Position numbers and translations under genes: made by a program. A stretch of DNA of 64,000 bases from Candidatus Omnitrophota bacterium (GTDB lineage: Bacteria; Omnitrophota; Gorgyraeia; Zapsychrales; Fredricksoniimonadaceae): assembly GCA_013285735.1 (NCBI GenBank), contig JABDGZ010000002.1, positions 5,952 through 69,951 on the forward strand, given 5' to 3'. Below are positions 6,869 through 64,000 of this stretch, in pieces (the first letter of the stretch is position 1; each line of letters opens with the position of its first letter). Below the pieces are notes generated by a model. It worked only from the letters and a program-made list of their open reading frames with translations, ran no database searches and was not told the DNA's origin.

Positions 6869-7994
6869 GATAAATATCTTCTGTCTTTGAAACCCTTGTT
6901 TTTTGAAAAATAGTTTTTATCAAAAAAAAGCTCAGCACAGGAACGGACATACACCATTCTATAGCCCAAGGGTATTTTAAGAAGCCCTGTGCTATAAATG
7001 CCCAATGCATTTGTTTCTTCAATCTTTTCTGAATTTGTTCAACTTGAACCTTTCTATCTTTTTGGCGACAATCAAATTCATAAGCACAATTCTTAGCAGT
7101 ACTTAAAGCAATGGCCATCCCGTCACCCGTAAAAGACGGAATAACCATACGCTGATCTCCCAGGAAATATACATTTCTATGGCTGCTTTGATCACGCAAG
7201 AATCCATAGGGAATGTGGCTGATGGCACAAACCGGCTCAATAAAATCAGCTTGGTGAAAAACTGCGTCTAATTGGCGATTGGAACGGCGTAAATACGCGA
7301 GAACTGCGTCAAAATTTCCGTTTAAAGCCTTATAAATCTTTTTGTCGATAAGAAAACAGAAGTTCATTGCCTCATCTTCCACCGGGCAAATCCCTCCATA
7401 ACCTCCAGGAAATGAAAATAACGCGGTTGTTTCTTTAAATTCATGACCTTGATCCTTAAAACGGATATGGGTCTTTAAGCCTACATAAGAATTATCTTTT
7501 CCCTCGCGCTTATGCTCTTTGGAATGATCGTGTTTGCCAGTGGCTATAAACAGATAACGCGCATAAAAATCATCGGTGATTGTTTCGATCCTTATCAAAC
7601 CTTCCTCTTCTTGATGATAACTCCTCATGCATATACTTCTAAAAACATCCACCCCCGCATGCCTGGCATTATTCAAAAGTTCTTCATCAAGTTGATAACG
7701 CGACATGCCCCGGCCTGGAAAAGGAAAAGTGAATTCAACTTTCGATCGAGGTGAAGATAATCGAAAATATTTGATAACAGGGATATCATCATCTAAAAAG
7801 ATTCCCATCTCTTTAAGATACCCCAAAGCCTCAAAACTTAAAAACTCCCCACAAACCTTATGGTGCGGCCCGTTGGTTTTCTCCAAAAGAGCAACCTTGT
7901 ATCCAAGATTTATCAGATGGTATGCCGCCGTTGACCCGGCCACTCCCCCACCGACCACTACACATTCATAAAGATTTTTCATAGCGGATACCAT
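6825..7994 (-). CDS. FAD-dependent oxidoreductase/monooxygenase (geranylgeranyl-reductase-like fold)
   Basis: N-terminal dinucleotide fold VVVGGGVAGSTAAYHLINLGYKVALLEK and GD motif YFLGDQRMVIPSFTGDGM. Overlaps both neighbouring genes. Confidence 0.75.
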   Translation of the reverse strand: MVSAMKNLYECVVVGGGVAGSTAAYHLINLGYKVALLEKTNGPHHKVCGEFLSFEALGYLKEMGIFLDDDIPVIKYFRLSSPRSKVEFTFPFPGRGMSRYQLDEELLNNARHAGVDVFRSICMRSYHQEEEGLIRIETITDDFYARYLFIATGKHDHSKEHKREGKDNSYVGLKTHIRFKDQGHEFKETTALFSFPGGYGGICPVEDEAMNFCFLIDKKIYKALNGNFDAVLAYLRRSNRQLDAVFHQADFIEPVCAISHIPYGFLRDQSSHRNVYFLGDQRMVIPSFTGDGMAIALSTAKNCAYEFDCRQKDRKVQVEQIQKRLKKQMHWAFIAQGFLKYPWAIEWCMSVPVLSFFLIKTIFQKTRVSKTEDIYHDDQSVFTSDYSRR

Positions 7995-32409: not shown

Positions 32410-32817
32410 ATGAAAAATTTAAAAAATATTTTTTTCATAGGCTTGACCTTAGTGTCCGTATTTAATCTATATCAAGCCTATGCTCAGGCCATTGCACAGC
32501 TCCAGGACCATACAAGTATCCCCCTGCATAGCCTGGGATATCAATTCATGGGATTAGAAAATGTTTTCAAACATGTCCATACCGTCGGTTATTTTACAGA
32601 TAAAGACCTTAATAACCCCTTAGCCGTAGCCCAATTTGAACAAGCTCAATATATGCTGGTACCAACTGTTTTGGACCTTAATCATACCCAATACCGCTGG
32701 GTGATATTTGATTGCACCAGTCCACAGGTGGCGATGGAAGCAATACAGCATCTAGGATTAACTCCCATGAAAGCAAATCACGGCATTATTTTGGCCTTTA
32801 ATCCTAATGGAAGTTAG
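32410..32817 (+). CDS. Hypothetical secreted protein
   Basis: Signal peptide (IGLTLVSVFNLYQAYA); no recognisable motif. Confidence 0.4.
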   Translation: MKNLKNIFFIGLTLVSVFNLYQAYAQAIAQLQDHTSIPLHSLGYQFMGLENVFKHVHTVGYFTDKDLNNPLAVAQFEQAQYMLVPTVLDLNHTQYRWVIFDCTSPQVAMEAIQHLGLTPMKANHGIILAFNPNGS

Positions 32818-32823
32818 TCAAAA

Positions 32824-34116
32824 ATGATCTATTTTTTAGGTATCCTTATTAGTTTTGCGGCAGGCTTCCTTTTAATACGCCTGTTAACAGATGGCCGCCT
32901 TAATTTTATCCTGCATATTTTATTAGCCTTGGCACTGGGCTTAGGGATAAATGGTACTGCAGCTTTTTATACGCATATCCTTTTAAATCAACCCAATCGA
33001 TTTATTCCTATCGGACTCGTATTGTTTCTTATAACCTACCTGTTTTTTTTAAATAATAAAAATATATCCTTCCCTAAGTTTTCATTTACGCAAGCCCATG
33101 GATGGGGATTGCTGACCTTAGGTGTTTTGACTATTCCATTAGCTGTCAGTGGTCTTCATTACCCTCTGGGTGGATGGGATGCGTGGTCCTGCTGGAGCCT
33201 GAAGGCAAAATTTATTTTTTTAGGACAGGAAAACTGGAAGGATATGCTTGATCCCGGTCTTTGGCGCAGTAACACGCATTATCCGCTTCTTTGGCCTCTG
33301 ATCAATGTATGGTTTTGGGATTTAGGTGGTCATTTTGACCAAACAGTACCCATGCTTAACAGTATTATTTTTGCCTTGTTAACCGCCGGGATATTACTTT
33401 TCGGACTTTTGGAATTGACTGGCATGCTGCTGCCTTCCCTATTCGCCGCTGTCATTGTGATAGCCTTACCTTTTGGTGTAACCTTATACACCAGCCAATA
33501 TAGCGATAGCCTGTTGGGCCTTTATCTACTATCAGCCTTCATCTGTTTGCTCTTGGCAGAAAAAAATAAGCTGCCTAAACTCAAAATATTAAGCATGGTA
33601 TTTTTAGGACTGATGAGCTTTACTAAAAATGAAGGATTGATTGTTTCTGGCATTGCGGTGTTACTTATTCTTTGGCACGAACGCTCTCACAAAAAAGAAT
33701 TAAAAAATCTTGTTCTAGCTTTTGCAATCGCTCTTTTGCCTACCATTATCTTTACACTTTTCATGGCCCCTAAAAATGAAGCTTTTATCAATGGATTAAC
33801 ATCGACGGACAAGCCCACCGATTGGTCACGTTTAATGATCATTTTAGTTTATCCTTGGTTTGAATTTATCTCTGGTAAATGGAACTGTTTTTGGCTGCTG
33901 GTCGCTGGTGGAATTTTACTGTCGGGAAAGAAATTATGGCAGTCCACCCTTGGAGTGATTGGCTTTAGTCTAATCCTATATCTGGGAGTGGTGATGGCTT
34001 ATTACGATGTTAATACTTTTTTTGAAATCAGCTGGTGGCTGTCAACAACCCTCTCGCGTATTCTCTTCGCACTAGTACCGACCATCGCCTTATGGATCGG
34101 CGTTGCTTTATTGTAA
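32824..34116 (+). CDS. Polytopic membrane protein (possible GT-C type glycosyltransferase)
   Basis: About 12 TM segments. Lies next to divergently transcribed sugar-modification genes. No diagnostic motif recognised. Confidence 0.35.
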   Translation: MIYFLGILISFAAGFLLIRLLTDGRLNFILHILLALALGLGINGTAAFYTHILLNQPNRFIPIGLVLFLITYLFFLNNKNISFPKFSFTQAHGWGLLTLGVLTIPLAVSGLHYPLGGWDAWSCWSLKAKFIFLGQENWKDMLDPGLWRSNTHYPLLWPLINVWFWDLGGHFDQTVPMLNSIIFALLTAGILLFGLLELTGMLLPSLFAAVIVIALPFGVTLYTSQYSDSLLGLYLLSAFICLLLAEKNKLPKLKILSMVFLGLMSFTKNEGLIVSGIAVLLILWHERSHKKELKNLVLAFAIALLPTIIFTLFMAPKNEAFINGLTSTDKPTDWSRLMIILVYPWFEFISGKWNCFWLLVAGGILLSGKKLWQSTLGVIGFSLILYLGVVMAYYDVNTFFEISWWLSTTLSRILFALVPTIALWIGVALL

Positions 34117-37089
34117 TCTTTGCCGCAACTCAATTAAAATGGGAAGATTTACAACGGACTCGATTTCAGTAATTTCAGGGATAAAACCCTGGATACGGCT
34201 TAGTTGGGCCATGTCTTGCTGAGATAAGGGCAACGGTACACCACGCCCGTTGCGTTTGATTTGTAAATTCAAATTTGCGGAATTAAAATCAATACCACCA
34301 TTCAAAGCTTGGTCTGAAGGTGGTTTGAGATTCGTTCGCATTGGTAATTTCGGTGGTTGGCCAGCATGCGGCTTGATATTTTGAGTTAAATAATATACGA
34401 TCCATGCCGCGACAACTACCAATACCAATGCTATCACTTTGGGCAGCCTATCCTCACGGTAGTCTACGCTCCCATCTTTATCTGTCATTATCGCTGTTGC
34501 TATCGTTGCAGCAGCTATTGCGTTTGGGGAACCTATATCTTTAAATCTTCTAAGCCACATCCTTGCCAAGTTAATTGCTTTAAGATTATCCTCACCCTTA
34601 CTTATCATTGTCACAGCTGCTTCTGTTGCAGCAGTCGCTTCTGTGTTGTCCAATTCACTAAATTCCAAAGACAGGTCTTTTACCGTTCTGATTGCTTTAC
34701 TTTCATTAATCTTTGTACCATCACTCGCCACTGTATCTATCAACATCGCTGCCATCATCACTTCAAAAGTAGTAAGCTGCTTCTATTCTGAAAACCAAAT
34801 TACCATTTCTTTTGCTTTACTCTCAACCATCCCTTTACTTATCATTATCGCCATGATGATAGCTCCAACTTGACCAGCTTTTACAATTAATCTTTTTGCC
34901 AATAAAATTGCATCCTTCTCCTCCATACCACCACTGATCAGTCTCCCTGCCGTTATTGTTGCAAAAGGCGTCTCTTCTCTCCTCCAATGATAAAACTCCG
35001 ATATTAATCGTTCTGCCATGATTCCAGCTTTAAGCTGTCCCCTTCTTTTATTCACTAATCTAGCAGCTGTTGTCGTCCCCAAAAATATTATGTCTGAATT
35101 ATCTTTTCCAATCTTTCTAAACGTGTCAACTAAGTATTCTGCCGTGGATATTGCTTTATTACTATTCATCGCAGCGTCATAACTAACTTGTGCTTTATCT
35201 GTCAGTATCGCTGCTGCCATTGTAGCGGCTGCTGTTGCATTGGGAGAACCTAAACGACTAAACCTTTTAAGCCAGCCCCTTGCCATCCCAATAGCTTCCC
35301 TTGGGTCTATCCCCTTAGCTATCATTCTCGCTGTTGCTTCTGTCCCGGCAATTGCTTCTAGCTTACCCAAATCACTAAATTCTGACGTCAGGTCTCTTGA
35401 CGTTCTAATGGCTATGGCCTCACTTATCTTGGCACCTATCATAATAGATGCTGTCATCAGTTCTTGAGTGGAAAGCTGCTTTTGTTCCCATAACCAAGCT
35501 GTCATTTCTTTTGCTTCATTTTCTTTCATCCCTTGACTTATCATTGTCGCCATTAATATGGCACCTATATCACCATATTCTGAAATTAAATTCTTTGTCA
35601 TTGGGATTGCGTTCTTTTCCTCTATCCCTCCTCTTATCAATCTCCCTGCTGTTATCGTTGCAACTGGCGTATCTTTTTTGCTCCATCTGAAAAATTCCCG
35701 AAACAGTCGTTCTGTCAAATCAACAGCTTCAACTTGCCCTCTTTTTTCATTGATCAATCCCGCCGCTGTGTTTGTTCCCAAAAATAATATTTCAAGGTCA
35801 TTATATTTTCTGAACATTGCGACCAAATTCTCTGCTGTAGAATTTGCCACAATACTATTCATCGCCGCGTCAGCTTCTTTGTCTGTTTCAAGCGAAACAG
35901 CTGCCCTATCTATATCTCCTACCAAAGCAGAACGGTCAATGCTATGGGATATAGTAAGAGACATATCCTTATTATTTACGATTTCTAATATTCCTCTACC
36001 ATAACCATGCATTCCATTGTCAATACCGCTATATTTAACTGCCCCACCGGAAAAATATTTTCTTGGAATTGCTTCCTTGGTATATTTGTCCACATCTTCT
36101 TTGATGTAGTTAAACACCCCTTTCTTAAAAGCCTTAAGATATTGTTGGTAGATTTGATGTTGAGATTGCTTCGCTTCGCTCGCAATGACACCAGGATCAT
36201 TACTTGTAAAACCAGTAACTCCCTGCACCTTGGCTTGGTTGGCATAAACCTTTCCTAATAATGATTCCTTAAGAGCGTGTTTATACCACGTGGCTAAAAT
36301 CATGCCGCTATAAATCTGGCGTAGGTTAGCAAAATTCTTACCTTCATTGACTTCGCGCTCGAGTTCGGGAAGGACGATTTCACGGATGACTTGGGAGCCT
36401 ATGGAATGGATGTTATTAGTAGTTCCAGAATGTTTTTGTAAAGAAAGATAGTCTTCTTCCAGCATCACTTTAAGATGATTGCGCAAGACATATACCGTAT
36501 TACCGCTTTCATAAACTGCAGCTTCGTCAGGGATGATCCAGACTTTATTAAATGTGTTGACGGGAATATTGGTGACGCCATATTCTTTAAATGCTCGCTC
36601 ATAGACTCTATTCCAGAATTTTTTGCCTAAATTATCTTCGGGATAAATCAAACTCGAGGTGATTTGCTTTAAGATGTAGTCCTGTGCGAGAAGGTCTCGA
36701 CCCATTTCAGTCTTGCCAAAATCATCCTTAATAATACGGTTCTTTTCATACGGAGAGAGATTGACCCACTGGTCATTATCAGGAACAGTCAAAGAGGCTA
36801 AAAAATATTTTACTAATTTAGTATATTGCTCTTGTTTCTGAATTTCATTTAACGGCTCATCCCCGCGATGAATGAGAAAATCAAATTGTAGGGCATTGTC
36901 AGGATGGATGACCATTCCTACCAAATGTGCAGGTGTATATGTTGAACTTAAATGCACCAATATTCCGGGAGCAGGTAAGTGAAATTCACCTTCAACGCTA
37001 TACATTGGTTCTGCCTTGGCAGTTGGATTAGGGCCAATGGTGTTGACAAAAAATGCCAATAGGATAATAAAAGACACACAGCTACGCAT
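34108..37089 (-). pseudogene. Head-cargo-tail paralog B, interrupted by one in-frame TAG at 34783-34785 (ORFs 34783-37089 and 34108-34761 are in the same frame)
   Basis: 37089 and 34761 are both multiples of 3, so the two ORFs share a frame. Reading through gives ...KEMVIWFSE*KQLTTFEVMMAAML..., which continues the internal ~230-aa repeat; compare repeat 1 ...KEMTAWLWEQKQLSTQELMTASIM... Signal peptide, head domain, 2 repeats, a TM (VIALVLVVVAAWIVYYL), and a GGIDFN tail. Confidence 0.8.
36162..36189. repeat. Hairpin repeat family 2, in frame in the paralog B head domain
   Basis: gagattgcttcgcttcgctcgcaatgac; encodes VIASEAKQSQ. It is absent at the aligned position of paralogs A and C. Confidence 0.85.
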
Positions 37090-37140: not shown

Positions 37141-37617
37141 CTACGGCCGTTTGATCTTTTTGATCTTATACTTCAAAATCCCGGCAGGGACCTTGATCTC
37201 CAAGGTCTCACCTGCTTTATGACCTAATAATCCCTTACCGATGGGCGAAAAAATGGAGATTTTGTTTTCTTCATAACTGGCTTCTTCCGGCGAGACTAAC
37301 ATATACGTCAACTCTTCATCATTGTCCAAGTCCTGCATGGTGACAATGGCACCGATGAAAATCTTGTCCGAGGGGATATTTTCATTCTCGATAATACGCA
37401 CATTAGCCAGCTTCCCCTCTAGCTCGGAAATACGCGACTCATTATGCGCCTGCGCCTCTTTGGCCGCGTCATATTCCGCATTCTCAGATATATCCCCCTG
37501 GGCACGGGCCTCACCGATGGCCTTGGCAATTTTCTGGCGCTCGGTTGTCTTGAGGCTTTCTAACTGATCCTGCAGTTTGTGAAAACCCGCCCTGGTCAAA
37601 TAAACTTCATTACCCAT
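37141..37617 (-). CDS. greA: Transcription elongation factor GreA
   Basis: LTRAGFHKLQDQLESLK...EARAQGDISENAEYDAAKEAQ; C-terminal FKBP-like domain. Ends in TAG. Confidence 0.9.
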   Translation of the reverse strand: MGNEVYLTRAGFHKLQDQLESLKTTERQKIAKAIGEARAQGDISENAEYDAAKEAQAHNESRISELEGKLANVRIIENENIPSDKIFIGAIVTMQDLDNDEELTYMLVSPEEASYEENKISIFSPIGKGLLGHKAGETLEIKVPAGILKYKIKKIKRP

Positions 37618-48435: not shown

Positions 48436-51400
48436 TTAAGTAGACGAAGCCTGCAGCTTATGCTGCAGTTCACTTAAGATTGGCAGATTTACAGCAGGCC
48501 TGATTTCGATGATTTCAGGTATAAAGCCTTGGATATTGTTAAGCCGGGTCATGTCTTGTAAGGCCATAGGAAGCGGCACCCCACGACCATCGCGTCGGAT
48601 TATTAAATTCAAATTCGAAGAATTAAAATTAATACCACCTAAGTCTTCAGAAGATACTGCTGGAGCCATGCCAGAAAAAGTAAACGTGTCCATATGCGTC
48701 GGCCGCGACACCACATTAACTCCACTACCAAATGCAGGTAATGCAGCAGCTACTAGTAAAGAAAGTGATGATGCTAATTGCCTCACAGTCATCGAATTGT
48801 CCATTACATCAGCCAAGTTAGATAAGAGCTCTGGCGTAGACATTGGCTTTGGCAATAACCGCATTATTTTAGGCATATTCTTGAATGGAAGATGCTCACC
48901 AGGCTTGCTATATTCCCCATGATTACCACTCCAAAATACTCGCGGCATATTGGAAACTCTCGGATCAGTGCTAATACTAATTCTTCTAGCCAACTCTTCA
49001 CCATCCATAACAGGCATATTAATATCAGAAATCATCCCATCAAATTTTTTATCTGGATCTTCCAACAATTTCAACGCTTCTTCTCCATTATTAGCAATCG
49101 TGACATTAAGACCCAACACTTTTCCCCACATCCCCAACGACTTAGTAATAGGTTCTTCATCATCAATAATCAAAATATTCTTTCCAGTAAAGAATGTTTT
49201 TAAATCCTCCATTGATCTTGTCGTAATCATCGCCGTATCCAAGACTTTTTTAACCGCCTTACCTACTTCGCTACTAAGATTAAATCTCCCCTTAGCAAAG
49301 AAATGCCCATCTTCAATAGGAATTCCTGCCGCTCGTAAATCTGCTGCGCTACTATCTCCGCTTGTAGCAAAAACAGGGATTTTCTTACCGTGATCTTGCT
49401 CAACCTTATCTAAAGCCTCTTTAATAGTCGGTATCCAACCCCTTACATCAGTCACCAAGGCGTCTACTTCCTCTCCATGTTCTTCCATAATCTTTGCGAG
49501 CTGTTTTGGATTATGCGCTTCTAAAACCACATACCCCATTCTTCTTAGTGCATCTGTAATATCCATTTGAATAAATATTTCATCTTCTGCAACCACAACA
49601 ACCTTTTCTCCTGTGGTCGTCATCGCCACATCAGCGAAAAGATCCCTTGCTACAAAGGCAGATCTCCTTCTAGGATTTTCTTCAAAATAACGTCTTCCTG
49701 CAAATGTACCTGCCCACTGATTTAATGCTCTTTCATACAAAACTTCCACATGCACATTTAATTCAGTTCCTGGTTTATACACATCTTCATATGTCACTGG
49801 AACTCTGATTTCTGCGTAATTACTGATAGGCCAAACAAGAACTACCTTTTCATCTGGATGCCGTTGCAAAATCTTTTCTACAACTATACAAGAATTAGAA
49901 AGAGAAGCTCCAGCTTTTATCGGATTTACTTCTATGGGAAAATCCTCAGCCCGCCATTGCTTCCATTTTAAAGATGCCGCTCCTTCCAAAACTGCATTGA
50001 GAGCAATGGTGTCATTAATAGTACTAGCTGCTATTTCAATTTCACCTCTATCACGGCTTGTAATAATATTGTCTAAATCTGCCAAAGGCATAGCCGATAC
50101 AATTTGCGACACTTCACCGATTCCATTTTTTCTTCCATTTAATATATCAGCCAGACGCTGGACAGTTATCCGCCTGGGATCTATGGGACCTTCCCTGCCA
50201 GAGATCTGGGTGTAATATGTCCGTCTTAATCGTCCAACCACAACCCCTTCTCTTGCTTCTCTTAACTCATTTATCATTCGGAGAATTAATTCTTTATGTT
50301 GTGGGATGACACTGCTTCTTGGTCTTTTCTCAAATGATTCTGCTATCTTTGTTAATTCGTAAGGAGACGCATAGTCAATAATTGAAGCTACTCCACTCAT
50401 AAATCTGCCAGTCTGATCCTCAGTAGTAGTTGCAGATCTCTGCGACAAATAAATTAAACTCTCAACAGCTATTTCTGTGCTCTGTACATCCAAGGCTCGA
50501 TTCATAATAACTCTAAAAATTTCAATCAACTTTGGAAAAATAGTTCTATCCTGAAAAAGTAGACTATGTAATTCGTCCGATTGCCTTAGAATATGGTCTA
50601 CCATTTGCATCACTACTTCTGCTCTTCTGCTAGTGACCATGGGCAAACCCCTGACTTCATCTCTTACGTTTACAGCTTCTCCCCGTGAATTTAAATAAAT
50701 CCCGATTGGAAATCTAGTTTCCCCACCATTAAGTAATTTATTAACTCCAACTGTTCTTAAATACCCGCAAATTAAATCTACTATTATTGGTAAATCTTCT
50801 ACCGAATAAGAACCGCCTAATTCTCCTAATAATTTCTTGAAAAAAGCGCTAATGGCTACTTGATAATCTCCCACGAAGCTCAGTTCTCTAATAGCTTTGG
50901 GTTGAGCCCAATACCAATATTCTTGATTTCTAACTGCATCATCTGTCTCTTTCAGCAACGCACTTTTAACCATTTTTTCTGACCTTAACACCACCCTCGA
51001 CCTTTCAAAATCGCTTCCTGGCACCGGTATTGGGCTAACCAAAGCAAATCCCAAAATTCTTCGATTAAATCCCCTCACATCATCGACATATTGATATAGA
51101 AAAAATGGACGCAAACTCTTAACATCGAGTGTCTCTAACAATGCTTTTGCTTTTTCAAATTCAATTTTAGCCTGTTCAAAATTCTCTGAATCTAGCGCCT
51201 TTGTTCCATTTTTCATATATCTTTGAATGACTGGGCCATTTTCCTCATACGTCGTCTCAAAACGCCCCCTATCACCGCTGGGACGGACACTCCCTTTCTC
51301 ATATTCCTTCTTAAATTTTAAATACGTTTCTACTGTCCCAGACTTTGAACCATACACTTTTTCCAATATTGATCTGGTTTCAACTCCTAAAACCTTGGTA

Positions 51401-54400
51401 CGTCGTTCAAGCAAATTCATTTTTGCAAACACCATACACAGTTTTCCACTAGGAAGTTCTATCAAAACATGATTTGCAATTAATGCTTCTATAATTTTGT
51501 TACCAATAAGTTTAGCCAATGGTGGCAGCTGATCGATAAAACTTGTTCTATCAAAGTCAGCCAAAGATTCCATGGCTTCTATGGCTTCTTTTACCGCATT
51601 TAAATCATTCCTTTGGTAATAAACAACCGCATATTTAAGCCTAAAATACTCATCAAATAAATTCCCGAGATCCACTGTTAAGCCCATTTGTTGATGCAAC
51701 GCTACCAGATTAGAATAGGCAAGGCTTAATTCTGCATTTGCATCATCCCGTTCTCCTGCTCTAATCAATTCTTCACACGCTTTCAACTGGTCTTCAACCC
51801 GTACTTTTGGATCTATTACCGTTGTCATCGACTGATCTCCCAAGCCTAAAAAACGAAGCAGTGGTTTATCGCTGGGAGGATGTCCCAAAAATTCCTCTTG
51901 ATTCTCAGCCTCGTGATTGCTTCCACCTGGCTCTAAAATTAAAGTTCGAAATTCTCTTCCCACTTGAGGATCAAAATCCACCGTCCTATCATCGCCTTCG
52001 CCCACGATCCTCATTGCTTTTATAAAACGTTCGCCGTCATCCTCTGCAACCCCGAGCGATTCGGCATATGTAGAAAAACGTGCATCATAATTTGATCCCA
52101 TAATATGCCGCCATGCAGCTTGATAATGCGTCCCTGCTGTCGGATAGATTCCTGCCTCATTCATCGTGTTAAAATAAACTTCAGTTGAGCTGCCAGGCAC
52201 GCCCGTATGATATCTTAAATCAACAAGAGATAATGCCACCCTCTCAAGCCAGGTATACGCTTGCCCCACCTTGCTTGAAGCTATCATCTTATTAAGTAGA
52301 TCATCCGAAACTTTCTTTCCTTGAATTCTTCCATTTTTTCCTATAATTCTTCTGAGGATTTCGGGATGATATACCATGTTTTCAAACATCTGCGAAGGGA
52401 CTTCATCAGCACCACGCTTTACCCCATGAATTCCGGAAAGTGATGGGTATTTAGCTCTTGTAAGTGCCGCATGCATCAGGTGGCCAAATTCATGCATAAA
52501 TATCGCTACTTCTTTATATGTAAAATTATTTCCTGAGAAATTAGCCACCATCCCTTCCACTGTAGGCTCATACGTCCCATCCGGATGCTCATAAGCTCGA
52601 CGCATGTTGAAGACAGCAAAACCACCTTGCTTACCATCATGCGCCTTTATATCTAAATAAAATTGTCCGATAAAATTCCCTGTTGTTGTATCACTCACTG
52701 AAAAAAGCCTGGCATCTTTATGCCAAGCATTGGTTGAGCCTCTAGGCACTTCTGTAAACGTAACATCCAGGATTTCTTGATAAATATCTAATATATTATT
52801 AATTGTTCTATCAATAGGAAATAGTTCACTCAATTTACTTGGATCAAAACCTAAAATTCTTTCTCTTAATAAATTTTGATAATATGCTCTCTCCCAATTT
52901 TCAATTTTCGTGGCTGATCGATCTGTCTCTTTCTTTATATCAAGAAGCTGAGCTTCTTCTTCCGCTACAAGCGGCATTAAGCCAGTCTTTAACTGATTTA
53001 AAAAACTTTCCACCTCTTGACGATCGTTAGACATATACCTTTTGATGATATAATCAGCATATGTATCATAACCAAGTATCTTAGCAAGCTCCTCACGTCT
53101 CCCCAGGACCTCTTCAAGCAGGGAAACATTATTTAAAGACTGTTGTAAAATAGGAAGAATTCTAGAAAATTTATCCCCAAAGATGGCTGACATACGTTCA
53201 GAATCTTGCCTCAATTTTAATGTTAAAACAATTTCCGTAGGACTTTTGCGCCTTGCCCAACCGTTATCGATCAATATTTGGGAATCTTCATCCCAGCTAA
53301 GTCCATTAGTTTTATCTTTCTCAAATTGATCTTTTGTTACTACCTCTTCACCGGCAGCCCGATTATTATAGGCAAATTCAACTTGTTTCCGAAGAGCAGC
53401 ATTAGTAGACAACTGCATAAATCTGTCATATTGGATGGGAGAAGAGAACTTATTGATAACATATCCTTCTGTCTGTGGATCATAAAAACTTTTTAGTTCA
53501 TCACCTTTAAAAATACCTTCAAGATCACTCTCAGACACCTGAATATTCATTTTATACCCACCAAGATTTGCCTGAAACTGGCTAATTAATCCCCCTATTT
53601 CTCCTCTAATTTCAAGGACTCTTGCCTGCTGCTCGTCAGTCAATTTTAATCCAGACAAACCTATCCCAAGATCTCTAAAATCATCGAGTGTCCAGTCCAA
53701 AAGATACTGGTCTGTTTCATCTAATTTTTCTCCCTTAGCCTGATATTCTGCAATCGCATCATAAATTTCACTTCTTGTACGGGATTTTCTTAAAACTGGC
53801 AAAATCCTTGATTCAAAATCATCGCCGATGGCTGCTGTCATCTTCGCTACTAGATTTTTATCATTCAAATTTACAGTTATGCGTATCTTGGTGGGGCTTA
53901 TGCGCCAGGCCCATCCATTTTCAACTAATTTTTTAGAAACCTCATCCCAATCAGCTCCGATGTCCTCCCTTGTAACAGTTCCTAAATATATATACCCCAT
54001 CAGCAATTGGTTTGTTGCCAGACGAATTGCCTCAGCCGTATTATGCAATTCTGTATCAGGGGTAACAAAAGGAATGATTTGCCAATCCAAAGCATTAAAT
54101 AATTCTGCCCTGGCAATATCAAATGCAGCGACAGTATTCTGAAAGGTCCTTTGTTCGACCGGCCTATTAATAATTTCCTCTACCTCTGCCTCAAGCCTGT
54201 CTCTAGCCGCATTAATTTTCGCTTTAAACTCTTCAGCTGTTAATTCTTCAAAATTATTCTCTGGTAGCGGCTCATCTAAGACTGTGTTAATCTCTACACC
54301 ATCATTACTGATCGTTATTTTATGTGTAGAAGTTCTAATGACTACTTGATTATTTTTATTCACCTTTTCCGTATATATTTTCTTCACACCCTTAATGTAG

Positions 54401-57400
54401 ACAACGGCACCTCGAGCATCCACCCCAACAGCTTTAAGACTTTTTTCTTCTGATTCATATTGCCGGGCTAACGGTGCAATTAATGATGACAAACCAAAAA
54501 ACTTTACAACACCCTGCTGCTGATCAACAATACTAAAAGTTCCAGCCCTATACTCCGTCAACTTGTACGCATACTCACCCTCTTGAGTGATTTCTCTATC
54601 TACTTTAGCGATACCATCATAAAGAACCACCGCTACACCCCGTGGCCTAGCTAACACTTTTAATCTTTTAAATTCTTCAATCGCTTTGGCACCTGGATGC
54701 CAATGATAAGAAGGACTTCCATATAATCTTTCATCACTAACGGGGGCAAGTGGATAAGAAACAGCAGCTTCATGTCCTGTTACAATCTTTGTTAAAAATT
54801 GATCTTTTATTATCCATCTCTCACCACTTTTAGGGTTAATTAAAACTGTCCCTTCTGGCAAAAGCCGCATCTCTTCCCTAGCCTTTTTATTTTCTATCGT
54901 CATTGCATTGTCAGGCATAACAAGGGCTACTTGTATAAGAAACTCTGCAATTTCTTGAGCGTCTTTCGGATAATTCTGTTCATCTGGCCGTATCTCAATC
55001 CCAGGTAATGCGTCTTGAAGTATGCCTCTAAACTTTTCATCGGCGTACGCGGTTTGCCATAGTTGTGATCTCAATTCAGGGTACTCAAGACTCCTTGCAA
55101 TTGCCAAAACAGTTCCACGATCAAAACCAGGCACAGCATTTATGCGCGTGGCAGCATCCTCAATTTTAGATACCTTATCAGAAAGTCCGGTTTCGCTAGA
55201 AATTGTTACTTGCGTTTGACCAGGCGCACTTATCTTCCTGGCAACTACCACCAAAACATTTGATTCAACTTTAACCTTACCAGATGGAATACTCGGGTCA
55301 TGATAAAAAACCCGATTACCTGTATTAAAAATCATCACATTTGCGTTACTTGGGATATTCCGTACCTGCATACGGTTAACTTCGAGTGTTGCTCCTTTTA
55401 TTTCAGATTCTATTAATTGAAAACCTGCTTTCTGTAAAGAGGCATCAAGCGCTGTTTTAAACATATCTACGGCGTCCACCTTAACAGACCTTACCTTTAA
55501 AATCCTCAATATGTCCGCAAAAAGTCCTTCATACTGTTCTTGCAGCTGAGCAGGTGAATTTTGAATCTCAACAAAATATTTTAACGGATCTTTAAGGTAA
55601 TCACTCAGTAATTTTACATCTGCGTCATGCATTTTATGTCGGCTTGTCGCAAAACTCATTGCTAACGCTCTACGGTTAACCTTCAAATAACTCCGCATGA
55701 CCTTTTGATTTGTTCCAGGCATAAACGAGACAGCAGGGAAAAAAACTGCATCTTGAGATGCCATTACTACATCAGCCGATGGTGCCAAATCAATAAACCC
55801 AACCATTAAGCCATCTTCCCTTAAAACACGATGCATTTCTGCTGTCGCATGATCCAAATCAAAAAATGTATCCAGGACAGCATAGCTGACAATACCAGGT
55901 ATTGAATTATTAGGAAACTGCATCGCATTGACGTTAACAACAATCTTGGGCGTGTCATATTGATTACGTTTCAAATTATCTTCAATGACATCTGATTGAA
56001 TAATACGCCCTCTCATTCCTTGAGCAAGACGAGAAAGCTCCCCTTCCCCACTTCCTATCTCTAAAATCGGCGAAGTAGTATGACCAAAATATTGCGCTAA
56101 TGTATTTCCAACAACCATACTCGTGGCAGGTCTAAAATCTTGTCTGAATTCATTGTACATTCTAAACACTTCAGGGGTGTTCCATAGCGGTGGACGTTGA
56201 TCACCATTCATCGCTTCGTCACCGCTGTTCAGATTTTCTTTTTCACCTGTTCCATGAATATCGGTTTTGACAACTTCATCTTTTCCCTCTGCAAACTCGT
56301 CAGGTATTTGATCCACAACTTCTGCTGGCAATGTTACAAAATCATGGACAACTGCAACGTTAGGAACCAGGTATGGAATTCCATTAGGTCCCATCCTTAC
56401 AAGGCTTCTCCTAAACCCACCTGAAAAATACTTCCTCGGAATAGCTTCATTGGTGTACTTATCCACATCTTCCTTGATGTAATTAAAGACACCTTTTTTG
56501 AACGCCTTCAAATAACGTTCATAGATTGCTTCATTGGTTTTGGGGTCCTGGTCAACACCTTTGACCTTGGCTTTGTCGGCATACACCTTCCCTAATAGTG
56601 ACTCCTTCAAGGCTTTCTTATACCAGGTCGCAAGCACCATGCCGCTGTACATTTGGCGCAAGCTTGCAAAATTCTTACCTTCATTGACTTCTTTTTCTAA
56701 TTCGGGAAGGATGATTTCACGGATGACTTGGGAAGCGATCGCATGGGTGTTGTTCTTGTTATGGATTCCCGCTTTCGCGGGAATGACATTATTGATCGCG
56801 GAATGTTTTTGTAAGGACAGATAGTCTTCTTCTAACATCACCTTTAAATGGCTTTGGAGAATGTAGGCGGTGTTGCCGCTTTCGTAGACAATGGCTTGAT
56901 CCGGCACAATCCACACTTTATTAAACGTATTCACTGGAATACTGGTGGTGTGGTATTCTTTCCAGGCACGTTCATAGATCCTAGCCCAAAACTTCTTACC
57001 CAAACCATCTTCGGGATAAATCAGGCTTGAAGTGATTTGTTTGAGCATATAATCTTGGGCCAAAAGGTCCCGGCCCATTTCAGTTTTTCCGAAATCGTCC
57101 TTAATAATACGATTATGTTCATACGGGGATAGATTGACCCATTGGTCTTCATCAGGAATGGTCAAAGAGGCCAGAAAATATTTGACCAATTTCGTATATT
57201 CTAGCTTTTTTTGATCACTATCTAATTCTTGATCGCCTTTATGGATTAAAAAATCAAACTGCAAAGCATTATCCGGATGAATGGTTATGCCCTGTAAATA
57301 GGCCGGTGTAAATTCAGGACTTAAATGCACCATCACTCCAGGCATTGGCAAACGCGGCATCTGATCCTGTGACAACTGGGCATAGGCCGGGCTTTTAACC

Positions 57401-57495
57401 GAAGTAACGATAAAAGCAACTAAAATAACTATAGAAGTAATTTTATATATTCTTCTTAACATAATCTTAACAATTTTTAGGGTACATGGGACCAT
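48436..57495 (-). CDS. Giant (3019 aa) head-cargo-tail paralog A: signal peptide, conserved head, SAM-MTase, unknown regions, M3 zinc peptidase, 2 receiver domains, conserved tail
   Basis: Uninterrupted 9,060-nt ORF; domain motifs are listed in the sub-features below. The start is either 57495 (GGGAG 2 nt upstream, which is too close) or M12 at 57462. Both give a signal-peptide-like N-terminus ...IVTSVKSPAYA/QL. Confidence 0.9.
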   Translation of the reverse strand: MVPCTLKIVKIMLRRIYKITSIVILVAFIVTSVKSPAYAQLSQDQMPRLPMPGVMVHLSPEFTPAYLQGITIHPDNALQFDFLIHKGDQELDSDQKKLEYTKLVKYFLASLTIPDEDQWVNLSPYEHNRIIKDDFGKTEMGRDLLAQDYMLKQITSSLIYPEDGLGKKFWARIYERAWKEYHTTSIPVNTFNKVWIVPDQAIVYESGNTAYILQSHLKVMLEEDYLSLQKHSAINNVIPAKAGIHNKNNTHAIASQVIREIILPELEKEVNEGKNFASLRQMYSGMVLATWYKKALKESLLGKVYADKAKVKGVDQDPKTNEAIYERYLKAFKKGVFNYIKEDVDKYTNEAIPRKYFSGGFRRSLVRMGPNGIPYLVPNVAVVHDFVTLPAEVVDQIPDEFAEGKDEVVKTDIHGTGEKENLNSGDEAMNGDQRPPLWNTPEVFRMYNEFRQDFRPATSMVVGNTLAQYFGHTTSPILEIGSGEGELSRLAQGMRGRIIQSDVIEDNLKRNQYDTPKIVVNVNAMQFPNNSIPGIVSYAVLDTFFDLDHATAEMHRVLREDGLMVGFIDLAPSADVVMASQDAVFFPAVSFMPGTNQKVMRSYLKVNRRALAMSFATSRHKMHDADVKLLSDYLKDPLKYFVEIQNSPAQLQEQYEGLFADILRILKVRSVKVDAVDMFKTALDASLQKAGFQLIESEIKGATLEVNRMQVRNIPSNANVMIFNTGNRVFYHDPSIPSGKVKVESNVLVVVARKISAPGQTQVTISSETGLSDKVSKIEDAATRINAVPGFDRGTVLAIARSLEYPELRSQLWQTAYADEKFRGILQDALPGIEIRPDEQNYPKDAQEIAEFLIQVALVMPDNAMTIENKKAREEMRLLPEGTVLINPKSGERWIIKDQFLTKIVTGHEAAVSYPLAPVSDERLYGSPSYHWHPGAKAIEEFKRLKVLARPRGVAVVLYDGIAKVDREITQEGEYAYKLTEYRAGTFSIVDQQQGVVKFFGLSSLIAPLARQYESEEKSLKAVGVDARGAVVYIKGVKKIYTEKVNKNNQVVIRTSTHKITISNDGVEINTVLDEPLPENNFEELTAEEFKAKINAARDRLEAEVEEIINRPVEQRTFQNTVAAFDIARAELFNALDWQIIPFVTPDTELHNTAEAIRLATNQLLMGYIYLGTVTREDIGADWDEVSKKLVENGWAWRISPTKIRITVNLNDKNLVAKMTAAIGDDFESRILPVLRKSRTRSEIYDAIAEYQAKGEKLDETDQYLLDWTLDDFRDLGIGLSGLKLTDEQQARVLEIRGEIGGLISQFQANLGGYKMNIQVSESDLEGIFKGDELKSFYDPQTEGYVINKFSSPIQYDRFMQLSTNAALRKQVEFAYNNRAAGEEVVTKDQFEKDKTNGLSWDEDSQILIDNGWARRKSPTEIVLTLKLRQDSERMSAIFGDKFSRILPILQQSLNNVSLLEEVLGRREELAKILGYDTYADYIIKRYMSNDRQEVESFLNQLKTGLMPLVAEEEAQLLDIKKETDRSATKIENWERAYYQNLLRERILGFDPSKLSELFPIDRTINNILDIYQEILDVTFTEVPRGSTNAWHKDARLFSVSDTTTGNFIGQFYLDIKAHDGKQGGFAVFNMRRAYEHPDGTYEPTVEGMVANFSGNNFTYKEVAIFMHEFGHLMHAALTRAKYPSLSGIHGVKRGADEVPSQMFENMVYHPEILRRIIGKNGRIQGKKVSDDLLNKMIASSKVGQAYTWLERVALSLVDLRYHTGVPGSSTEVYFNTMNEAGIYPTAGTHYQAAWRHIMGSNYDARFSTYAESLGVAEDDGERFIKAMRIVGEGDDRTVDFDPQVGREFRTLILEPGGSNHEAENQEEFLGHPPSDKPLLRFLGLGDQSMTTVIDPKVRVEDQLKACEELIRAGERDDANAELSLAYSNLVALHQQMGLTVDLGNLFDEYFRLKYAVVYYQRNDLNAVKEAIEAMESLADFDRTSFIDQLPPLAKLIGNKIIEALIANHVLIELPSGKLCMVFAKMNLLERRTKVLGVETRSILEKVYGSKSGTVETYLKFKKEYEKGSVRPSGDRGRFETTYEENGPVIQRYMKNGTKALDSENFEQAKIEFEKAKALLETLDVKSLRPFFLYQYVDDVRGFNRRILGFALVSPIPVPGSDFERSRVVLRSEKMVKSALLKETDDAVRNQEYWYWAQPKAIRELSFVGDYQVAISAFFKKLLGELGGSYSVEDLPIIVDLICGYLRTVGVNKLLNGGETRFPIGIYLNSRGEAVNVRDEVRGLPMVTSRRAEVVMQMVDHILRQSDELHSLLFQDRTIFPKLIEIFRVIMNRALDVQSTEIAVESLIYLSQRSATTTEDQTGRFMSGVASIIDYASPYELTKIAESFEKRPRSSVIPQHKELILRMINELREAREGVVVGRLRRTYYTQISGREGPIDPRRITVQRLADILNGRKNGIGEVSQIVSAMPLADLDNIITSRDRGEIEIAASTINDTIALNAVLEGAASLKWKQWRAEDFPIEVNPIKAGASLSNSCIVVEKILQRHPDEKVVLVWPISNYAEIRVPVTYEDVYKPGTELNVHVEVLYERALNQWAGTFAGRRYFEENPRRRSAFVARDLFADVAMTTTGEKVVVVAEDEIFIQMDITDALRRMGYVVLEAHNPKQLAKIMEEHGEEVDALVTDVRGWIPTIKEALDKVEQDHGKKIPVFATSGDSSAADLRAAGIPIEDGHFFAKGRFNLSSEVGKAVKKVLDTAMITTRSMEDLKTFFTGKNILIIDDEEPITKSLGMWGKVLGLNVTIANNGEEALKLLEDPDKKFDGMISDINMPVMDGEELARRISISTDPRVSNMPRVFWSGNHGEYSKPGEHLPFKNMPKIMRLLPKPMSTPELLSNLADVMDNSMTVRQLASSLSLLVAAALPAFGSGVNVVSRPTHMDTFTFSGMAPAVSSEDLGGINFNSSNLNLIIRRDGRGVPLPMALQDMTRLNNIQGFIPEIIEIRPAVNLPILSELQHKLQASST
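48439..48639 (-). other. Conserved tail domain (paralog A), unknown family
   Basis: GGINFNSSNLNLIIRRDGRGVPLPMALQDMTRLNNIQGFIPEIIEIRPAVNLPILSELQHKLQ. Equivalent tails lie at 34111-34300 (B) and 60962-61177 (C). Confidence 0.8.
48817..49182 (-). other. Receiver (REC) domain 2 within paralog A, canonical
   Basis: NILIIDDEE ... GMISDINMPVMDG ... VFWSG ... LLPKP. Confidence 0.8.
49261..49605 (-). other. Receiver (REC) domain 1 within paralog A, divergent
   Basis: KVVVVAEDE ... ALVTDVRG ... VFATSGD ... FFAKG. Confidence 0.6.
51850..54264 (-). other. M3-family (thimet oligopeptidase / Dcp / oligopeptidase A-like) zinc metallopeptidase domain within paralog A
   Basis: HEFGH at 52480-52494 (aa 1668-1672), followed ~25 aa later by DEVPSQMFENMV, the E-x-PSQ third-ligand motif of M3. 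N-terminal helical region RTFQNTVAAFD. Contains two inserted ~55-aa repeats. Confidence 0.8.
55786..56133 (-). other. Class I SAM-dependent methyltransferase domain within paralog A
   Basis: Motif I ILEIGSGEGE (I477 at 56065-56067), acidic post-I IIQSD, NAMQFPNNSIPGIVS, and HRVLREDGLMV. Confidence 0.7.
56416..57360 (-). other. Conserved head domain (paralog A), unknown family
   Basis: aa ~45-360, ending IPRKYFSGG. Collinear with 36043-36990 (paralog B) and 63113-64000 (paralog C). Confidence 0.8.
56763..56787. repeat. Hairpin repeat family 1, in frame inside the giant gene (encodes VIPAKAGIH)
   Basis: ggattcccgctttcgcgggaatgac. Paralogs B and C lack these ~12 codons at the aligned position. 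Confidence 0.85.
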
Positions 57496-60958: not shown

Positions 60959-63900
60959 CTAATTCAACACTTGATGGTACGGAATATCTGATTCAAGACT
61001 CAAGAAGACTGGCAGATTGGTAAGCGGAACAATGGATCGAATTTTAAATTCCAGGCCATCAAAACCCTCAGTCTTGATACGCGCAATCATGGCCGAGTCA
61101 AAGTTCATTGAGATACCCTTGTCACCTTTTTGAATATTCATTTTCATATTACGGGAATTGAAATCAATACCACCAGGATCTAGCATCGCCCCATCTTTTC
61201 CTGCTTTCTTTCTTTGAGCTGCCATTCTACTAAGTTTTTCATCATCATACGAGCTACTATAGTCACGGTCCTTTACCCTGGTGGTGGGCACTGTGTTAAA
61301 TTCTCGATCGAAAAAGATAGCGACTGTTCCATTTCTAAGATTAATTCTAGGTATTATCCTAATTACATTAACATGTCTTTCAAGAGAATCAGATAGAGGC
61401 ACTTTAACATGATATATCGCCGCCATAAATATAAAACGCCAAAGAATGTATTCACCATTATTAAGACCAATAATACCGACGGGAAAATTCATATTACAAG
61501 GGGCCTCTAATAATATAGGGTACATTTGTTTTTTCTCGACATCTGACATTGTAGGTAAAACCATATTAGAACCGTCTTTTCCTTTAAGACCATAAAACTT
61601 GTCTTGAATTACGCCATATTCAACTTTAATACCATTTTCGACTACCACCATTGGAACTATGTAACCATTGCTTATCAATTCCTGCCATTGGGCATCTGAA
61701 AATTTTTGTTTTATAACAGTCCGAACAAACAATCCAATGGTCGCATTTAGAATATCTCCCCCCTCAGAAGTAAAAATGAGCCTAGCTTCCTTAAAATATA
61801 CTCCATCTAAATGGGCCCAACGTAACAGTCTTTTTAATTGAGTACGTGTTGGTGAATCATCCAACATTAGCGGCCTGTTATAAATCTTCATTTTTTGACC
61901 TATTTCAGGACCATCTTCCTGCACCCCCAACTTCAAAACCAATCCTTTTTTAAATTTCCTTGGCGGTGCAAGCGTATCCATGGCTTGATCCTTAAACTGA
62001 ACAGCCCCTCCAAAAGGCTTGGCAGTAAAACTGTCTAAATTTTCTGGATCTTCTTGACTTAATTCTAGTACATAGCATTTTTGTTTATCTTTTTTTAATG
62101 ACATTTTGAAAAATACACCGATCCTTATTTGAATCTCTTCTAAATTCTTTAATTGAGCCTTTTGCAAAATATCATAAATTTGACTCTTCATCTTTAAATT
62201 CCAAGCTTTGGGAAGGGCCTTTATAAAATCTACTCTATTCATGTTATAGAATTGTTTGGAAATTCTACCTCTGATGTCGATAAATCCACCCTGTAACAAT
62301 ACCCCCCTTATCAAATGATCTACATCTGCTGACGGAGTTGGAGTGGTAGGCTGAGACGATTGAGAGATGGTTGAAAATGCTAGTTTTGCGACAACTCCAG
62401 AATTTTCGTTAAGAGAATCTGAAGCGGTATTTTCAAACAACTCTGCAATATTTTTGCTAACATCAATTTCTTTACCTAAAAGACTCTCATGAAAATATCC
62501 CATTGTCTTATCTAAAACGATTTTACCATTACCTTTAATAGCTTTGACTATAGCCTCTTCAGTAAGCGCAATGGCATGCTTGTTTTGATCTTGAGCTATC
62601 CTGTCAATAATTTGCCCTTGCTCTTTATTGGTCAAGTCTGTATCAACAATATAGGAAATACGGACCTTGGGGATTCCATTTCCTAAAATACGGATAATTT
62701 TCCTAATTAAAACTTTAGATTCCGAAACAGATTTTGGCCAGGATTCCGGCAATTTATCGAGTAAACGTGCTGTGCTTTCTTGACCTACAAATTCTTCTTT
62801 AGCTTCACGTGCCATAGCCTCCAATATGCTTTCACGATCTTTTTCTAAATAATACCATTTCAAAAATTTAGAAAATAAACTGCCCCGAAGGCCCTCTAAA
62901 CGCAAATCAAACACATCTTCCTTCTCAATGGTCTTCAACCCTTTAAACATTCCTAAAACTTTTGCCTTTGCTTTCGTCCCACCTATCAATGCTGAATCTA
63001 CACGGGCAGGAAAAGCATCAACAGTCGCAATAAATTCATGCCCCGGTGAATCTAACATTGAAGCATCAACATTCTCAACAACACTTGGCGTTATCCCCTC
63101 CCAAATATCTTCCCCACCTGAGAAATATTTTCTCGGAATAGATTGCTGACTGATTTTATCAATATCTTCTTTAATATAATTAAACACACCTTTCTTATAC
63201 GCCCGTAAGTAACGATTGAATATTTCTTCGTTGGTTTTTAGATCAGCCTGATTTATCCCAACCTTGACCTTACTTTGATTACCATAAATCTGTGTAAGGA
63301 TGGCATTTTTAAGAGCTGTTTTATACCAGCTGGCCAGGATCATCGAATAGAACATCTGACGTAAAGGGGCAAAATTTCTGCCTTGATTGACTTCCTTTTC
63401 GATTTGGGGAAGAATGATCGAACGGACTATATTAGACCCTACTGAGTCTATATTGTTGCGAATAACCGTGTGTTTCTGTCGCGCCAAGTAATCCTCTTCC
63501 AGCATCACCTTTAAATGCGCGCCAACCACATAGGCGACGTTGCCACGCTCATAAACATCCGCCCTGTCAGCCACTATCCACACCTTATTAAAGGTGTTAA
63601 CAGGCACTTGTGTTGTCCCGTATAATTCTTGAGCTTTAGAATAAACCTCATCCCAAAAAGTCTTACCCAAATTTTTCTCAGGATAAATCAAAGAAGCTGT
63701 TAATTGCTTCAAGATATAATCCTGCGCCAACATATCGCGGCCCATTTCTGTCTGGGCTAAGTTTGAAGCAATCATCCTGTTTTTCTCATAGGGAGACAGA
63801 TTGACCCATAAATCCTTTTCAGGAATGGTCATTGCGGCCAGGAAGTATTTGATGAGTTTTGAAGATTCTTGTTTGAGCTGTTTTTGTTGTTTGGAAAGGG

Positions 63901-64000
63901 AATCAGTGCCGGTATCAATAATAAAATCAAAAAGAAAAGGATTTTCAGGATGGACTTTCAGCCCCTTAATGAGTATTGGCTCATAAGTAGGGCTTAGGTT
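60959..64000 (-). CDS. Head-cargo-tail paralog C; N-terminal end lies outside the window
   Basis: The ORF track starts at an internal Met (63832). My translation of 63833-64000 stays open and homologous to the head: NLSPTYEPILIKGLKVHPENPFLFDFIIDTGTDSLSKQQKQLKQESSKLIKYFLAAMTIPEKDLWVNLSPYEKNR... The tail is GGIDFNSRNMKMNIQKGDKGISMNF... Confidence 0.85.
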   Translation of the reverse strand, partial: NLSPTYEPILIKGLKVHPENPFLFDFIIDTGTDSLSKQQKQLKQESSKLIKYFLAAMTIPEKDLWVNLSPYEKNRMIASNLAQTEMGRDMLAQDYILKQLTASLIYPEKNLGKTFWDEVYSKAQELYGTTQVPVNTFNKVWIVADRADVYERGNVAYVVGAHLKVMLEEDYLARQKHTVIRNNIDSVGSNIVRSIILPQIEKEVNQGRNFAPLRQMFYSMILASWYKTALKNAILTQIYGNQSKVKVGINQADLKTNEEIFNRYLRAYKKGVFNYIKEDIDKISQQSIPRKYFSGGEDIWEGITPSVVENVDASMLDSPGHEFIATVDAFPARVDSALIGGTKAKAKVLGMFKGLKTIEKEDVFDLRLEGLRGSLFSKFLKWYYLEKDRESILEAMAREAKEEFVGQESTARLLDKLPESWPKSVSESKVLIRKIIRILGNGIPKVRISYIVDTDLTNKEQGQIIDRIAQDQNKHAIALTEEAIVKAIKGNGKIVLDKTMGYFHESLLGKEIDVSKNIAELFENTASDSLNENSGVVAKLAFSTISQSSQPTTPTPSADVDHLIRGVLLQGGFIDIRGRISKQFYNMNRVDFIKALPKAWNLKMKSQIYDILQKAQLKNLEEIQIRIGVFFKMSLKKDKQKCYVLELSQEDPENLDSFTAKPFGGAVQFKDQAMDTLAPPRKFKKGLVLKLGVQEDGPEIGQKMKIYNRPLMLDDSPTRTQLKRLLRWAHLDGVYFKEARLIFTSEGGDILNATIGLFVRTVIKQKFSDAQWQELISNGYIVPMVVVENGIKVEYGVIQDKFYGLKGKDGSNMVLPTMSDVEKKQMYPILLEAPCNMNFPVGIIGLNNGEYILWRFIFMAAIYHVKVPLSDSLERHVNVIRIIPRINLRNGTVAIFFDREFNTVPTTRVKDRDYSSSYDDEKLSRMAAQRKKAGKDGAMLDPGGIDFNSRNMKMNIQKGDKGISMNFDSAMIARIKTEGFDGLEFKIRSIVPLTNLPVFLSLESDIPYHQVLN

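Follow-up and report, generated by a model that had tools for sequence, protein, structure and literature searches.

A single in-frame TAG, probably a recent nonsense mutation, splits an accessory paralog of an Omnitrophota-specific head-to-tail protein family

Introduction

The 64-kb window analyzed here (positions 5,952 to 69,951 of contig JABDGZ010000002.1, assembly GCA_013285735.1, from a Candidatus Omnitrophota bacterium) carries on its minus strand two adjacent open reading frames (ORFs), 34783-37089 and 34108-34761, that share one reading frame and are separated by nothing more than a TAG codon (34783-34785) and seven sense codons (KQLTTFE). Do these ORFs represent two genes, or a single gene, hereafter paralog B, divided by a stop? 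And if they are one gene, is the TAG a genuine lesion, an error in the assembly, a codon translated as an amino acid, or a stop kept for a purpose? The initial annotation of this DNA had joined the two ORFs into one gene and had offered a recent nonsense mutation, a population variant or a sequencing error as explanations for the stop. Coordinates given below are those of the window, and residue numbers are those of the read-through protein.

The comparisons described here support a single gene belonging to a large family of modular proteins, and the TAG within it is probably a recent nonsense mutation that has left a young pseudogene or truncated variant of an accessory paralog.

Results

Read on the minus strand, the site of interruption is AAA GAA ATG GTA ATT TGG TTT TCA GAA TAG AAG CAG CTT ACT ACT TTT GAA GTG ATG ATG GCA, with the GTG at 34761 opening the downstream ORF. 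A single frame runs from 37089 to 34108 through 993 codons, and the TAG (CTA on the plus strand) is its sole internal stop; it forms codon 769, so that residue 768 is the last one translated under the standard code. The read-through peptide is KEMVIWFSE up to the stop and KQLTTFEVMMAAMLIDTV beyond it. The TAG is codon 132 of the second of two tandem repeat modules, R2, and in the alignment of the modules it stands opposite Gln536 of the first module, R1, encoded by CAA (35482-35484, minus strand). Homology to R1 passes directly over the stop, and a further 224 codons remain open in sequence of 41% guanine plus cytosine (GC), a combination that lies far beyond chance. The coordinates, the shared frame, the spacing of the two ORFs and the homologous CAA codon, all reported in the initial annotation, were confirmed from the minus-strand sequence.

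The strongest evidence that the two ORFs constitute one gene comes from their relatives. We assembled a set of 120 homologs, consisting of the best 119 database homologs of the full-length query together with paralog A, a second family member in the window. All 120 carry a conserved head and a conserved tail within a single polypeptide, with the GG[IVL]D motif of the tail lying 55-75 residues before the C-terminus (four have GGVD or GGLD variants). Set beside them, ORF 34783-37089 is the sole tail-less sequence, and the TAG makes paralog B the one member in which the head-to-tail polypeptide is interrupted. The missing tail is found beyond the stop. When 122 tails were scored with a hidden Markov model (HMM) built from 120 family tails, the post-TAG tail received 119.5 bits, rank 52 of 122, against a family mean of 116 and a family range of 91-133. 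It departs from the family at 2 of the 23 columns conserved at 90% or more, in both cases with the residue that is the commonest alternative in other members. In the head every invariant family column is present, and the closest head, that of protein P0136, is 71-75% identical. Because all 120 homologs are undivided and the post-TAG tail scores as a family tail, the two ORFs are treated here as one interrupted family member, and comparative sequence evidence thus supports 34783-37089 plus 34108-34761 as a single gene. The arrangement that would have spoken against this proposal, namely relatives encoding two genes with their own starts, occurs in none of the 120, and R2 aligns to R1 unbroken across the stop.

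Taken as one gene (34108-37089, minus strand; 993 codons via the TAG, ending in TAA at 34108-34110), paralog B matches the family at both ends. Inspection of the sequence predicts a Sec-type signal peptide (MRSCVSFIILLAFFVNTIGPNPTAKA, followed by EP; 37012-37089), and a hydrophobic N-terminal segment with an A-x-A site is kept in the family consensus. The conserved head (36043-37011; HPDNALQFDF ... IPRKYFSGG, about 320-350 amino acids, delimited from homologs and invariant columns) ends with IPRKYFSGG at residue 349, and a linker then separates it from R1. R1 (35179-35871, 231 amino acids) and R2 (34465-35178, 238 codons) each open with a DAAM motif (35860-35871 and 35167-35178, respectively), and their global alignment requires three small gaps only. 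AlphaFold2 predicts both modules to be all-helical, with low confidence, and there is a faint sign of a sub-repeat of ~38-39 amino acids inside the module (z about 3). A single transmembrane (TM) helix (LPKVIALVLVVVAAWIVYYLTQ; 34381-34446, residues 882-903) is predicted from the only Kyte-Doolittle 19-residue windows above 1.8; it is the sole strongly hydrophobic segment of the protein, and a Pro/Lys-rich linker connects it to the intact tail of 63 amino acids (GGIDFNSANLNLQIKRNGRGVPLPL...LRQRLQ; 34111-34299). The R1/R2 alignment, hydropathy and the tail HMM bear out the earlier proposal that the downstream ORF supplies the remainder of R2 (its last 106 residues), the TM helix and the family tail. 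Since Lys and Arg are more abundant C-terminal of the helix, the intact form would place its head and modules outside and its tail in the cytoplasm, a topology that the sequence suggests.

Is the TAG present in the DNA of the organism? Contig SRR8422745_328 of the Logan collection, produced from the raw run by an independent assembler, is 100% identical to the window over 7619 nucleotides, TAG included, and an assembler-specific error is therefore unlikely. Nor is repeat-induced misassembly expected, given a DNA identity of only 69% between R1 and R2. Public protein collections hold the two halves separately, as P0001 (740 amino acids, starting at Met29) and P0121 (216 amino acids, starting at the first ATG); the sources of both are one 146-kb contig in NCBI and JGI, plus the Logan assembly. 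An exact look-up of the 768-residue ORF found it not on record, because the public call begins at Met29. Alignment with the family favors the ATG at 37089 as the authentic start codon, and the P0001 call drops the signal-peptide-like N-terminus (37006-37089). In a collection of 15 billion proteins we found none that bridges the stop with a CAG codon.

The two modules also provide a measure of the age of the lesion. R2 is 58% identical to R1 before the stop and 57% after it; nonsynonymous divergence between the modules (dN, Nei-Gojobori) is 0.28 before and 0.32 after, and its ratio to synonymous divergence (dS) is 0.25 before and 0.43 after, both below 1, with dS at 0.75-1.1, near saturation. 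No second stop occurs across the 224 post-TAG codons. Of all possible single substitutions in the downstream frame, 3.7% create a stop, equivalent to ~25 stops per unit of neutral divergence; the frame being still open, fewer than about 0.12 neutral substitutions per site should have accumulated since the mutation (95% level), a bound to be compared with the dS of 0.75-1.1 accumulated since the R1/R2 duplication. The relaxed constraint and decay that mark the downstream part of an older pseudogene are thus not seen, as identity and dN are similar on the two sides and the tail is intact. These observations leave two readings, a lesion young in comparison with the duplication or continuing selection on the downstream part. 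From these sequence comparisons the nonsense mutation is apparently recent, and its simplest route would be a C-to-T transition converting CAG to TAG, in which case the mutated base is plus-strand position 34785, now A and formerly G.

Homologs of the gene itself were then sought. The R1/R2 module is an orphan as judged by sequence searches: a word-indexed search returned only the protein itself and tail-only matches, and when 1.84 billion representative proteins were searched exhaustively with a profile, the only matches were its own two halves and two spurious repeat proteins. Locus searches of GTDB genomes and JGI metagenomes found no strain variants or orthologs, and they also missed the source contig itself. 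Using greA as an anchor, we did identify the closest species representative, Candidatus Omnitrophota MAG_AAO_H125.54 (JBGAJA010000003.1; L006), whose GreA is 87% identical and in which 12.5 kb is colinear with 26-43.6 kb of the window. There greA (6001-6480) and a PMT_2 gene (6464-7768) converge directly with a 17-nucleotide overlap, and no trace of paralog B lies between them. Because the colinear nearest relative is without the gene, paralog B is accessory in the clade, and on this sequence comparison its 3 kb is a presence/absence polymorphism between close species; more distant relatives lack synteny here, so that gain and loss are indistinguishable. The comparison of orthologs called for in the initial annotation accordingly yielded no ortholog of the orphan module and a nearest relative devoid of the whole gene. 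A foreign origin of paralog B was considered and found unsupported (GC 0.40, compared with 0.414 for the window).

We next consider how TAG is used elsewhere in the window. It ends 9 of the 47 ORFs of at least 150 amino acids, including greA, Nramp and Ogt. Three further same-frame TAG junctions (Nramp with an OprB porin, Ogt with a methyltransferase, and orf135 with PMT_2) all separate complete, unrelated genes, and on this ground TAG recoding was rejected. At the last of these junctions, orf135 (135 amino acids, 32410-32817, plus strand) and PMT_2 (32824-34116, plus strand) lie in the same frame with TAG and two codons between them; it represents a normal gene boundary, as orf135 has its own signal peptide and the pair is also encoded by two overlapping genes in the nearest relative. 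No further interrupted gene and no tRNA gene was found within the 64 kb. Reassignment of TAG is effectively excluded because TAG is an ordinary terminator of complete genes in the window.

The surroundings of the stop contain little that would regulate it. For 111 nucleotides around and 3' of the TAG the minimum free energy is -15.6 kcal/mol (z = +1.34 relative to shuffled sequences), and no hairpin or other stimulatory RNA structure was found there. Candidate restart codons (GTG-ATG-ATG, 34753-34761, minus strand) follow 21 nucleotides past the TAG, and no Shine-Dalgarno-like motif precedes them, compared with ~40% of window genes that have one. Near the stop, no promoter-like or terminator-like site was found on the coding strand. 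The separately initiated tail fragment envisaged earlier thus finds no supporting signal, there being neither a Shine-Dalgarno motif nor an internal promoter.

What kind of protein has been interrupted? A tblastn search of the window with the read-through protein reveals three paralogs, A, B and C, that have head and tail in common and unrelated middles. Paralog A (48436-57495, minus strand) is intact, with 3019 amino acids that include methyltransferase-like and M3 peptidase modules and two receiver modules. Paralog C (60959-64000, minus strand) has its head cut by the window end and a divergent tail (60959-61174) that scores 44 bits, compared with 91-133 in the family, and may belong to a separate subfamily. 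A search with the head returns more than 4500 matches, mostly from Candidatus Omnitrophica/Omnitrophota. The family is an Omnitrophota-specific, modular set of uncharacterized surface or secreted proteins, laid out as a signal peptide, a head of ~350 amino acids, a variable middle and a tail of ~63 amino acids (GG[IVL]D.N..NL.L.IKRDG.GVPLP...). The middles are mostly orphan, and some contain CheY receivers, DnaJ, helix-turn-helix, low-molecular-weight phosphatase, M3 peptidase, methyltransferase or TPR/HEAT domains. Pfam and NCBIfam hold no match for the head or the tail, neither a Foldseek comparison with the PDB nor a PDB profile search gave a match, and a literature search found nothing on the family or on run SRR8422745; a preprint on giant genes of Omnitrophota does not cover the family.

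A short motif punctuates these proteins. D-x-A-M occurs 280 times in 121 family proteins, ~25-fold above the 11.1 expected from shuffles, and marks module boundaries, often immediately before a new domain or the tail; its placement would suit either a linker signature or a site of processing. Paralog B resembles the rest of the family in its head (55-75% identity), its tail (119.5 bits), its D-x-A-M openings and its signal-peptide-like N-terminus, and it differs in its orphan middle module and its TAG interruption. A TM helix before the tail, which paralog B has, was detected with a crude hydrophobicity filter in only ~7 of the 121 members.

A search for members reduced to the head returned mostly short proteins, many of them ended by contig ends, and we inspected three that lie on long contigs. 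P0227 is cut short just past YFSGG by a frameshift, and the next ORF, of 886 amino acids, contains dCMP_cyt_deam_1 and MafB19-like deaminase domains. This locus is present at 5001-6216 of L002 (ENA k141_3120948) and on a 246-kb JGI contig; the two assemblies agree over the head gene and the beginning of the next ORF, and the full 886-residue ORF is present only on the JGI contig, as the ENA contig ends 150 nucleotides into it. The MafB19-like domains hint, from sequence, that some cargo modules of the family are toxin-like. P0163, recovered from two JGI samples (L003 and L004, 5001-8752), ends at the start of an IS66 element (TnpB_IS66, DDE_Tnp_IS66), and no remnant of its tail was found within the locus inspected. 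The contig of P0138 is full of frameshifts and, judging by its name, probably derives from a long-read assembly. Family members are thus disrupted by varied mechanisms with no recurring TAG pattern, which gives no hint of programmed recoding.

Paralog B is flanked by genes present in the nearest relative. Its 3' end overlaps by 9 nucleotides (34108-34116) that of the convergent PMT_2-like glycosyltransferase gene (32824-34116, plus strand), and its upstream neighbor is greA (37141-37617, minus strand), itself terminated by TAG.

Discussion

The evidence assembled above is most readily explained by an incipient pseudogene, or by a truncated variant, that the dominant genotype of the sample carries, a reading favored because the gene is accessory and absent from the nearest relative. 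The ancestral paralog B would have been a member of the head-to-tail family whose middle consisted of a lineage-specific, tandemly duplicated helical module and a TM anchor. A C-to-T transition at a CAG (Gln) codon would then have created a genuine stop inside R2. The product of the present gene should retain the signal peptide, the head, R1 and 55% of R2, and should lack the final 106 residues of R2 together with the TM anchor and the conserved tail, so that truncation would turn an anchored protein into a soluble, exported and tail-less one. A tail-less and anchor-less exported product is reasonable from the sequence, and we infer a loss of function of paralog B. We consider it likely that a recent nonsense mutation of this kind, yielding a young pseudogene or truncated variant of an accessory paralog, accounts for the locus. 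Among the explanations first offered, recent mutation thus gains from the lack of downstream decay, and an assembler error has become unlikely with the agreement of the Logan assembly.

In several respects paralog B resembles nonsense-disrupted young pseudogenes of multi-copy families. The stop is alone and in frame, it occupies a position that is a sense codon in homologous sequence, homology continues beyond it, the same genome carries intact paralogs, and other family members are broken by frameshift or insertion sequence (IS) insertion; the gene is dispensable, as the nearest relative lacks it. It differs from such pseudogenes in showing no downstream decay and in that its loss of function is deduced, and the truncated protein, which keeps a full signal peptide, the head and one module, could still be active. 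Other observations weigh against a recent lesion. An undecayed downstream ORF fits continued selection on that ORF equally well, and the near saturation of dS weakens the dN/dS comparison. The ancestral codon is deduced solely from the sister repeat, where the codon is CAA rather than CAG, and no ortholog carries the module. Finally, the TAG base was read from consensus assemblies, which carry no allele frequency within the sample, and the NCBI, JGI and Logan records may share the same reads.

This last point bears on the best surviving alternative, in which the TAG reflects an artefact of the consensus or of sequencing, or else just one of the alleles segregating at this site, and an intact gene with CAG or CAA persists in the population. 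The sequence comes from a metagenome-assembled genome, all of its public copies (NCBI, JGI and Logan) trace to one 146-kb contig and one run, and either an artefact or a segregating variant of very young age would leave the downstream part, as observed, with no decay at all. A second assembler nevertheless recovered the same base in a stretch of 7.6 kb that matches perfectly, R1 and R2 with 69% DNA identity are not expected to collapse or form a chimera, and no public assembly searched contains a CAG-bearing protein. We therefore hold an artefact or segregating allele to be unlikely.

Decidedly less probable is a functional stop, with both halves under selection and joined through leaky read-through (e.g., by a near-cognate tRNA-Gln) or reinitiation at 34753-34761. 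Read-through would add a small amount of an anchored full-length isoform to a predominant secreted isoform without the tail, and reinitiation would give a separate anchor-plus-tail protein. The 224 fully open downstream codons, the well-conserved tail and restart codons only 21 nucleotides past the stop are compatible with such a role. In E. coli, termination at UAG is comparatively weak when an A follows, and the near-cognate residue usually inserted at UAG is Gln; the same context is present here, and Gln insertion would restore the likely ancestral residue. Opposed to a functional stop are the lack of a stimulatory RNA structure, Shine-Dalgarno motif or internal promoter, a restart product that would begin amid a helical module, the single polypeptides of all 120 family members, the different breakage (frameshift, IS66) of the other disrupted members with no recurrent TAG, and the role of TAG as an ordinary terminator in the window. 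In its most specific form, which appears very improbable, the TAG would be kept as a leaky switch, producing mostly a soluble exported head-plus-module protein and, through rare Gln read-through or reinitiation, a membrane-anchored, tail-bearing form. Were this true, one gene would give two topologically different products, and the family may act as Omnitrophota surface or effector proteins.

Two further explanations have at most a very slight chance between them. That the ORFs are ancestrally separate genes abutting in the same frame by chance would agree with public annotation, which lists two coding sequences (P0001 and P0121), yet it is hardly credible when the boundary falls within R2, which can be aligned with its sister module over the full length, the second ORF would begin mid-module without a Shine-Dalgarno motif, and no family member among the 120 homologs is so organized. 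Reassignment of TAG, whether to pyrrolysine or (following genetic code 15) to Gln, would leave the gene intact and shares with phage code 15 and other programmed read-through an in-frame TAG where the homologous R1 residue is Gln. It is effectively refuted: greA, Nramp, Ogt and six further large ORFs stop at a TAG with the full length expected of each, reading past those TAGs would join unrelated proteins, the 64 kb holds no second interrupted gene and no tRNA, TAG serves as a normal terminator elsewhere in the window, and the case is a single one with no recoding signal.

The family invites comparison, as a functional analogy only, with polymorphic toxin and effector families. Shared features are a conserved N-terminus, variable modules, several paralogs per genome and the ORF with a MafB19-like deaminase that follows the disrupted head of P0227. 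Unlike known systems of that kind, the head-to-tail family has a conserved tail at the C-terminus and is punctuated by D-x-A-M, and we identified neither immunity genes nor a secretion apparatus in this analysis; we do not claim membership for it.

For annotation, P0001 and P0121 are best joined into a single gene entry that carries a flag for the internal stop. The nonsense mutation in paralog B is an ordinary event, and the family is more noteworthy than the stop: its members number in the thousands, neither Pfam nor NCBIfam has a model for it, and its hosts belong to a phylum in which predation or parasitism is suspected. Within this large, multi-copy Omnitrophota family, paralog B represents a further case of a turnover that proceeds through presence/absence, nonsense mutation, frameshift and IS insertion.

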